From Endomicrobiales bacterium (lineage in GTDB: Bacteria; Elusimicrobiota; Endomicrobiia; Endomicrobiales; CAWCFT01), in NCBI GenBank assembly GCA_963794945.1, contig CAWCFT010000004.1:352001-416000 (forward strand): 64,000 nucleotides of DNA, written 5' to 3'. The position numbers and the translations under genes were made by a program. Below the pieces are notes generated by a model, which saw only the letters and a list, made by a program, of their open reading frames with translations, was not told the DNA's origin and searched no databases. Each line of letters begins with the position of its first letter. Positions within the stretch are counted from its first letter, which is position 1. Of the stretch, positions 20,412-22,739 are shown one piece after another.

Positions 20412-20660
20412 TTATTTTTTCTTCTTCTTTCCGCCTTTTCCACGGCGAACCATCTTCGCTCTCGCGACATCGCCTGCTTTGTCGATGAAGTAAAGGAAAC
20501 CTTCTTCTTTCTTCACTCCGACTTTTGCGACCTTCTCGGGCTTACCGCCCTTCTTGCCGCCGCGGGCCATTTTCACGCGGGAAACGTCACCGCCTTTGTC
20601 GATGAAATAGAGGAAACCATCCGCTCTTTTCACTCCAACTTTCGTCACTTTCTCTGCCAT
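20412..20660 (-). CDS. Small Lys-rich protein made of two ~40-aa tandem repeats
   Basis: EKVxKVGVK...GFLYFIDKxGDVxRxKMxR twice; RBS AAGGAGGTGA. Confidence 0.85.
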   Translation of the reverse strand: MAEKVTKVGVKRADGFLYFIDKGGDVSRVKMARGGKKGGKPEKVAKVGVKKEEGFLYFIDKAGDVARAKMVRRGKGGKKKKK

Positions 20661-22203: not shown

Positions 22204-22394
22204 TAGTTAAATATTTCCATGTACTGCCATTAGGCTTTGAACAGCCTTATAATCTGCTATATTCTGCTGTTTGATAATGATACTACTTGTTTGTACTGCA
22301 AACATTATTACAACTATATGATGTAACAACAAAAACCACCCGCAAAAAGGTGGCTTATCAAAAAAGAATAAAATTAATTAATATTTCGGTGGGA

Positions 22395-22445
22395 TTTTCT
22401 GCAGGCTTACAGGCTTATTGAAAGCCTGCAAGCCGCAAAAAATTT
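22395..22445 (-). terminator. Long hairpin 3' of histone gene
   Basis: GCAGGCTTACAGGCTT-attga-AAGCCTGCAAGCCGC flanked by T/A runs. Confidence 0.55.
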
Positions 22446-22467: not shown

Positions 22468-22647
22468 TTACAGATCTTCCGAACCAAGTGTTTTTTTGTT
22501 TCCTGCTAACTTTGCTTTCTCAATTGACGCCTTTACTATTTCTTCGATCTTCGCGGAGAGAGACGCCGTATAATCCGCCCCTGTCCTGAAACCTGCTTCC
22601 TTTACCATCTTCTTTACCTTGCTTACTACAACCATAATTTCTGCCAT
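22468..22647 (-). CDS. Bacterial histone-fold protein (Bd0055/HBb-like)
   Basis: 59 aa, below ORF-track cutoff: MAEIIGVVSKVKKMVKEAGFRTGADYTASLSAKIEEIVKASIEKAKLAGNKKTLGSEDL; RBS GGGAGGTG; aligns by eye end to end with Bdellovibrio histone (MAEVLVVTSKVKKLIKE...AKADGRKTVMARD). Confidence 0.88.
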   Translation of the reverse strand: MAEIMVVVSKVKKMVKEAGFRTGADYTASLSAKIEEIVKASIEKAKLAGNKKTLGSEDL

Positions 22648-22739
22648 TTGTATTGTTCACCTCCCTTTAACTTATATTATTTTATCGAAAATATTTCAGT
22701 ATGTCCACTTTTTTTTAAAAAAGTATCTAGGTTATGATA

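Follow-up and report, generated by a model that had tools for sequence, protein, structure and literature searches.

A putative bacterial dimer-class histone of the Elusimicrobiota with a lysine at the clamp position of loop L2

Introduction

Does a reading frame of 59 codons in an Endomicrobiales genome encode a functional bacterial histone, and does a departure from the usual motif in its second loop (L2) signify an unusual way of handling DNA or of assembling with a partner? The frame lies in a 64,000-nucleotide stretch of contig CAWCFT010000004.1 (assembly GCA_963794945.1, positions 352,001 to 416,000), referred to here as the window, and an original prediction made from the sequence alone had described it as a divergent histone of the Bdellovibrio Bd0055 type. 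Bacterial histones are a recent and thinly studied group, for which structures and biochemistry have been reported for Bdellovibrio HBb and Leptospira HLp only. The prediction stated that homologues are reported in Elusimicrobiota, and such reports are found in Hocher et al. 2023, in Schwab et al. 2024 (PMC11390915) and in Hu et al. 2024 (PMC11317129), the last of which names Elusimicrobiota as one of the phyla that have related histones. Our search of the full-text literature returned no experimentally characterised Elusimicrobiota histone.

Results

A short gene under purifying selection

The coordinates of the reading frame, its flanking signals and a small basic ORF close by are collected in Table 1. 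The frame begins with ATG, and its product ends in KKTLGSEDL and starts with MAE..VVVSKVKK, in agreement with the MAE..V.SKVK pattern expected of Bd0055-type histones. It had been said to be missing from the ORF track, which is explained by its length, since a product of 59 aa falls below the default minimum of 60 aa and the frame is listed only when the minimum is lowered to 40 aa. The predicted protein is small and basic (6.3 kDa, pI 9.35, net charge +3).

Table 1. Features of the putative histone locus, in window coordinates.
Feature	Position	Strand	Evidence or remark
Putative histone CDS, 59 aa + stop, HBb-type, alpha3-truncated	22468..22647	minus	ORF list, homology, substitution pattern
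Shine-Dalgarno-like GGGAGGTGA	22657..22665	minus	read from sequence; function putative
Promoter-like TGGACA-17-TAAAAT, 10/12	22679..22707	minus	consensus scan
Long near-perfect hairpin, ~21 bp, in the 3' UTR	about 22394..22443	minus	RNA fold
Intrinsic-terminator-like stem-loop, then T-run	22333..22356	minus	terminator scan; second hairpin of the RNA fold
82-aa very basic ORF	20412-20660	minus	downstream of the histone CDS, two genes away

We compared the frame with six distinct orthologues (ten rows in all, four of them duplicates in which the same genomes had been reached by two routes), and 28–37 of the 41–49 base differences fall at codon position 3, with synonymous codon changes exceeding non-synonymous ones in every orthologue pair. 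The third-position bias and the synonymous excess reflect purifying selection on this frame, and the 59-codon ORF is thus a real gene. A spurious ORF was considered and rejected on the basis of the codon-position bias and of conservation at the protein level, with 397 proteins matching at E ≤ 0.01 in a word-indexed protein search.

The ribosome binding site and 3' hairpin described in the original prediction are both found at this locus. The GGAGG core of GGGAGGTGA lies 12 nt from the ATG and the end of the extended match 9 nt from it. The promoter-like site taken alone is weak evidence, since the 900-base region has four such sites compared with 2.9 +/- 2.0 in shuffled sequences. The terminator scan returned one site where shuffles give 0.5. 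The 3' hairpin comes after the stop codon and ahead of the terminator-like site, and a 146-nt fold of this downstream region has -44.4 kcal/mol (z -6.16), with none of 200 shuffles folding as well. We rejected the idea that this hairpin is a repeat or mobile element, as its self-match is the only one in the genome with E < 0.3 and no Rfam family matches it at threshold; our guess is that it functions in mRNA stabilisation or in termination. The spacers around the gene are AT-rich, with 24% and 32% GC compared with 47% for the window. With a Shine-Dalgarno-like sequence and a promoter-like site on one side and a hairpin and a terminator-like site on the other, the gene looks monocistronic.

Gene neighbourhood

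The neighbouring genes encode a YaiO-like beta-barrel, an HTH_17 protein, a lysine 2,3-aminomutase-like radical SAM enzyme (KamA) and a weakly polysaccharide-deacetylase-like protein. We examined 11 other loci for the KamA, HTH_17, YaiO and 611-aa neighbours, and at a distance of up to 1.5 kb from the histone gene none of the four is seen again. A tRNA-Met gene is positioned directly upstream of the histone gene in three of these 11 loci and in 22 of another 72 whose upstream sequence is long enough, in each of these 25 loci of other Elusimicrobiota on the same strand and at a spacing of 50–250 nt; at the histone locus of the window we found no tRNA gene.

The 82-aa ORF two genes downstream consists of two repeats of ~35 aa, each with the pattern KVGVK..GFLYFIDK.GDV.., together with a Lys/Gly-rich linker and tail. 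It matches no Pfam family and has no relative in the PDB (best E 7), and it falls in an Atlas cluster of 121 members that are mostly from Elusimicrobiota. Look-alike clusters in DPANN-type archaea score 0.93–0.96, with a recognition value below the tool's own mark. The product might be another small nucleic-acid-binding protein.

Relationship to known histones

The 120 matches listed of the 397 are 69–98% identical to the protein, the closest of them at 98%, and are 59–63 aa long except for two of 70 and 88 aa; among these listed matches the source names are all 'hypothetical protein' of Elusimicrobia or Endomicrobiales, save one evident JGI misname. Scans of the 59-aa protein against Pfam and NCBIfam returned no family, even at E ≤ 10. 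When searched against PDB sequences with phmmer, the protein matches HBb/Bd0055 (8fvx and 8cmp, E 5.9e-7 and 6.6e-7), HLp (9qt0, E 0.0075) and HTkC (9f2c, E 0.011), and a 47-row family profile gives E values of 1.3e-11, 5.6e-7 and 9.6e-6 for the same three proteins, with the alignment to HBb (8fvx/8cmp) spanning residues 1–58. By these comparisons the protein is homologous, at the level of sequence, to alpha3 histones of solved structure from both bacteria and archaea.

The closest solved relative is HBb/Bd0055 of Bdellovibrio bacteriovorus (PDB 8fvx, 8fw7, 8cmp, 9ezz and 9f0e), a member of the 'bacterial dimer' class. Both proteins are singlets of ~60 aa with an MAE..VV.SKVKK N-terminus and an S9-K10 motif, with K52, T53 and D58 in the same numbering, and the 51 columns that Foldseek aligns are 41% identical; a handshake dimer like that of HBb is predicted for the window's protein. 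They differ in that L1 is one residue shorter in the window's protein, which has one extra residue before the clamp position, and in that it has no match to PF00808, a name that the PDB entries of HBb carry. The Elusimicrobia histones in Table S1 of Hocher et al. 2023 (e.g. OGR87431.1 and OGR84132.1) are closer still, having the same length, a KKTLG[AS]EDL ending and a GFRTG loop, and the sequence of OGR87431.1 is an orthologue 76% identical to the protein. There is no difference in kind between these proteins and ours, which is an orthologue from a different genome.

Other histone groups are more distant. The face-to-face (FtF) tetrameric histones HLp (Leptospira perolatii, 9qt0) and HTkC (Thermococcus kodakarensis, 9f2c) have the alpha3-truncated fold class in common with the protein, and HTkC shares its L1 arginine in the alignment, but FtF tetramerisation involves an Arg six residues and an Asn two residues before the clamp Arg (Schwab et al., PMC11390915), and at these tetramer-interface positions the protein has Ala45 and Gly49, the latter in 73 of 80 loci. 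Archaeal HMfB-type histones (PF00808) are similar in the logic of the handshake, in a basic-x-T....D motif in L2 and in the L1 arginine; relative to these nucleosomal histones, the protein has a shorter alpha2 and an alpha3 reduced to a turn, with no alpha3 helix in the model, and PF00808 finds nothing either in the protein or in the genome. It is also distinct from the DUF1931 pseudodimeric histones (PF09123), being a single 59-aa fold, and neither protein nor genome matches that family.

The 'bacterial dimer' category of alpha3 histones, in which Elusimicrobiota are included, was set by sequence clustering rather than by structure (Schwab et al. 2024, PMC11390915). By that measure the protein groups with HBb, at E 5.9e-7 for the single sequence and 1.3e-11 for the profile, and it has the layout of the class, a singlet of 59 aa with no other domain and, in the AlphaFold2 model, an alpha1-L1-short alpha2-L2 arrangement; in the class these elements are followed by an alpha3 of just 3–4 residues. 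Members of the class are expected to form handshake homodimers and no larger oligomers, and to bind DNA non-specifically with bending or coating. The Thr and Asp of the RxTxxxxD motif are present at the correct spacing as T53 and D58, and the clamp Arg, a highly conserved residue of the class, is replaced by Lys51. As the class is defined by clustering, and the published catalogue already holds forms with Lys, Lys51 does not exclude the protein from membership.

The lysine at the clamp position is a clade-wide feature

The protein has Lys at position 51, where HBb has its clamp Arg51, and Glu57 directly precedes Asp58. HMMER places the single-residue gap relative to HBb ambiguously. Two observations indicate that Lys51 lies under the clamp Arg: five of 80 orthologues have Arg51 in the same context, and the alignment of Hocher et al. 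2023 has a gap before the clamp Arg and the first Lys of KKTLG beneath it.

The original prediction presented KKTLGSED, with Lys in place of Arg, as a variant L2 motif of this gene. The variant is there, but it is not peculiar to the gene. KKT....D is found in 120 of the 120 close relatives among the matches listed, and across 80 loci from different Elusimicrobiota species position 51 is Lys in 75 and Arg in 5. Each of R21, T22, G23, T53, G55, E57 and D58 is present in all 80, as are S9, K12 and K16. By title, 78 of the 80 loci are from Elusimicrobia, Endomicrobia, Elusimicrobiales or Obscuribacterium, with one from a 'bacterium' and one from an 'Ignavibacteria bacterium'; this last is a KKT-type copy, 71% identical to the protein, on JBGFRZ010000066.1, and mis-binning or transfer is possible. 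Supplementary Table S1 and the alignment of Hocher et al. 2023 include 17 KKTLG sequences from Elusimicrobia MAGs, catalogued as bacterial histones. KKT....D is the consensus of the Elusimicrobiota clade, and it is in the published catalogue.

In the wider family the arginine form predominates. Reducing 358 proteins found at E ≤ 0.001 to 150 representatives at 50% identity, we counted 102 occurrences of RKT....D and 10 of KKT....D; 19 proteins of the wider family have no such motif, and these are mostly truncated or frameshifted. Many members are tandem doublets of the same fold with lengths of 118–150 aa, some of them with signal-peptide-like or zinc-finger-like N-terminal extensions, and these fit the doublet and ZZ classes that have been described. 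None of the literature passages on bacterial histones that were available to us comments on a lysine clamp, although the HMM logos of Schwab et al. may show it, and the available part of the supplements of Schwab et al. 2024 (PMC11390915) mentions neither Elusimicrobiota nor KKTLG.

The prediction had also pointed to the lack of a basic residue before the Asp. In archaeal HMfB, too, the residue preceding the clamp Asp would be Glu, and a non-basic residue at this position would then not be unusual among histones.

Predicted fold and homodimer

The AlphaFold2 model of the monomer has moderate confidence (mean pLDDT 68.6, pTM 0.38). It has helices at residues 2–17 and 24–47 separated by a loop and followed by 12 non-helical residues, where DSSP assigns no third helix. 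An alpha3-truncated histone has this layout, though with a one-turn alpha3 that the model does not resolve. In a Foldseek search of the PDB, HBb and HLp rank first and second, at E 0.35, and none of the five matches reaches E ≤ 0.001. A wide VIA structure search gave Z 4.2 for HLp (rmsd 2.6, 51 residues aligned) and Z 4.0 for HBb (rmsd 2.9, 50 residues aligned), with no chain at Z ≥ 5 and with unrelated helical hairpins reaching Z 4.6. The original prediction had made a three-helix histone fold its test in the predicted structure; the monomer is predicted with two helices, and a 59-residue two-helix chain is too simple for searches of this kind, so that they neither support nor refute a histone fold. 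The fold assignment is instead based on homology together with the model of the dimer.

Prediction with two copies of the chain gave ipSAE values of 0.53, 0.50 and 0.48, compared with 0.00 for the best of three controls; in the calibration of the method, 20 of 30 solved pairs and one of 23 single chains came up to the mark used. At least 80% of contacts are common to the runs, and the partner has a pLDDT of 73 or more. A handshake homodimer is seen in the model, in which 34 packs on 34', 30 on 37'/38', alpha1 (11, 14 and 15) on alpha2', and L1 (18–23) on L2' (51–56), the tightest contacts being those of 53 with 21', 30 with 37', 34 with 34' and 23 with 54'. Because HBb dimers have already been solved, this pass may come from the memory of the prediction program; it speaks for likeness and not for binding. 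We infer from the model that the protein dimerises. Homology to HBb, HLp and HTkC and the handshake homodimer model both support the central claim of the original prediction, that this is a bacterial histone of the Bd0055 type.

DNA-contact residues and a possible clade-specific binding mode

The main DNA-contact residues of HBb are N22, R57, S9, T53, T8, S24, K10, K12, K52 and K16, with N22 and R57 making most of the contacts in molecular dynamics (Hu et al. 2024, PMC11317129). Six of these ten are identical in the protein (S9, K10, K12, K16, K52 and T53), and four are changed (T8 to V8, N22 to R21, S24 to G23 and R57 to E57), both of the top contact residues being among the four. Given these four differences, the binding mode of HBb may not transfer, and DNA binding by the Elusimicrobiota histone may differ in detail from that of HBb.

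A stronger form of this idea is that the Elusimicrobiota histones, while of the same family as HBb, bind DNA in a manner unlike it, with R21 as a minor-groove sprocket held by T53 of the partner chain, in the way known from archaeal and eukaryotic histones, and with the surface of L2 reshaped by Glu57 and the lysine clamp. The archaeal 'sprocket arginine' R19 is held by T54, and is missing in Bd0055 and not conserved across bacterial histones (Hocher et al.). R21 is a candidate for such an arginine: phmmer aligns it with Asn22 of HBb and, in archaeal HTkC (9f2c), with the L1 Arg, and among the contacts of the dimer model R21-T53' has the lowest expected error. The residues concerned are also fixed or nearly so in the species loci, at 80/80 for R21 and E57 and 75/80 for K51, and it is the residues N22 and R57, dominant in the HBb dynamics, whose places R21 and E57 take. 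Against this, insertion into the minor groove does not follow from a predicted dimer contact, and the exchange of Arg for Lys is conservative, with Arg retained in the five orthologues noted above. Moreover, an L1 Arg is present in 90 of the 182 domains of the 150 family representatives, compared with Asn in 53, and being so common in the wider family it characterises a large branch rather than one gene. We regard a binding mode particular to the clade as a tentative and rather unlikely proposal.

A further step would be to treat the Elusimicrobiota clade as a functionally distinct sub-type of bacterial histone, defined by the invariant L1 Arg, the lysine clamp and the invariant Glu57, that would engage the minor groove in the archaeal and eukaryotic style in place of the bending (Hu et al.) or end-on filaments (Hocher et al.) reported for HBb. 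We think this unlikely, but if true, these proteins would be the nearest counterpart in bacteria to the canonical recognition of DNA by histones.

Distribution and coexistence with HU

Of 301 genomes sampled from the phylum, 86 match the family profile, among them 74 of the 234 of high quality; counted by genus, 55 of 98 have a match. A histone is present in most families (e.g. in 24/27, 9/10 and 9/11 genomes), is rare in one (2/22), and by profile search is absent from two large ones, with 0/89 in a family of the window's own order and 0/88 in the other; both of these families have mostly small genomes of 1–2 Mb. Absence from two large families means that the histone is dispensable in those lineages, and the pattern would fit lineage-specific loss. 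HU (PF00216) is present in 289 of the 301 genomes whether or not there is a histone, and the source genome has one copy, about 16.6 kb beyond the end of the window. We considered complementarity between HU and the histone and rejected it on these counts, and HU copy number shows no simple compensation for absence of the histone. As HU is present irrespective of the histone, the histone presumably works beside HU and not instead of it, and it need not be the main nucleoid protein.

The coexistence of HU and the absence of the gene from two large families are also what might be seen if this histone-fold protein has no chromatin duty and serves as a specific regulator or as partner of another protein, and Schwab et al. 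(PMC11390915) caution that a prokaryotic protein with the histone fold is not necessarily a global organiser of the genome. Such a role is improbable, in that the DNA-contact residues of alpha1 and L2 shared with HBb are conserved, the protein is basic, with its pI of 9.35, and none of the four neighbours compared at 11 loci is conserved in a way that would suggest a dedicated partner.

Copy number

The source genome (2.9 Mb in 19 contigs, 85.9% complete) has a single histone match both in a protein search and with the family profile, for which eight candidates were scored, and it has no match at E ≤ 10 to PF00808 (ten candidates scored) or PF09123; at 85.9% completeness a second copy may have been missed, which is a small doubt. 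The suggestion in the original prediction that the protein is a divergent histone obligately dependent on a heteromeric histone partner is thus very improbable; in its favour are the altered motif itself and the weak second match (E 5.5e-7 to 7.8e-4) carried by 10 of the 86 histone-bearing genomes, and against it are the single copy and lack of any other histone-fold match here, the homodimer model that passes its controls, and the single match in the other 76 of the 86 genomes. The weak second profile matches in the ten Elusimicrobiota genomes are possible divergent paralogues or 'IHF histones', a group reported in Elusimicrobiota (Schwab et al.).

Discussion

We conclude, with a probability of roughly 0.85, that the gene at 22468..22647 encodes a single-fold, alpha3-truncated histone of the 'bacterial dimer' class, an orthologue of the catalogued Elusimicrobiota histones, that would act as a dimeric DNA-binding protein of the nucleoid. 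By analogy with HBb, we infer that it binds DNA, is abundant and has a role in the nucleoid. We envisage that two chains would associate head-to-tail in a handshake dimer, with the alpha2 helices crossing at residue 34 and with L1 packing against L2 of the opposite chain. The DNA backbone would then be bound, with no sequence preference, by each L1-L2 pair in combination with the S9/K10/K12/K16 face of alpha1, and the dimer would bend or coat DNA as an abundant nucleoid protein alongside HU. Lys51 would take the place of the clamp Arg and would still be able to pair with Asp58.

Since a clade with this exact motif has already been listed, the gene adds nothing to the catalogue of bacterial histones. 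What is added here is a quantified signature for the clade, with the lysine clamp in 75 of 80 species and R21 and E57 invariant, and the observation that the histone is not found in two large families with small genomes; the idea of a heteromer can be dropped. With solved structures and biochemistry confined to two bacterial histones, the Elusimicrobiota clade would make a sensible third model of how variation in L1 and L2 affects the handling of DNA.
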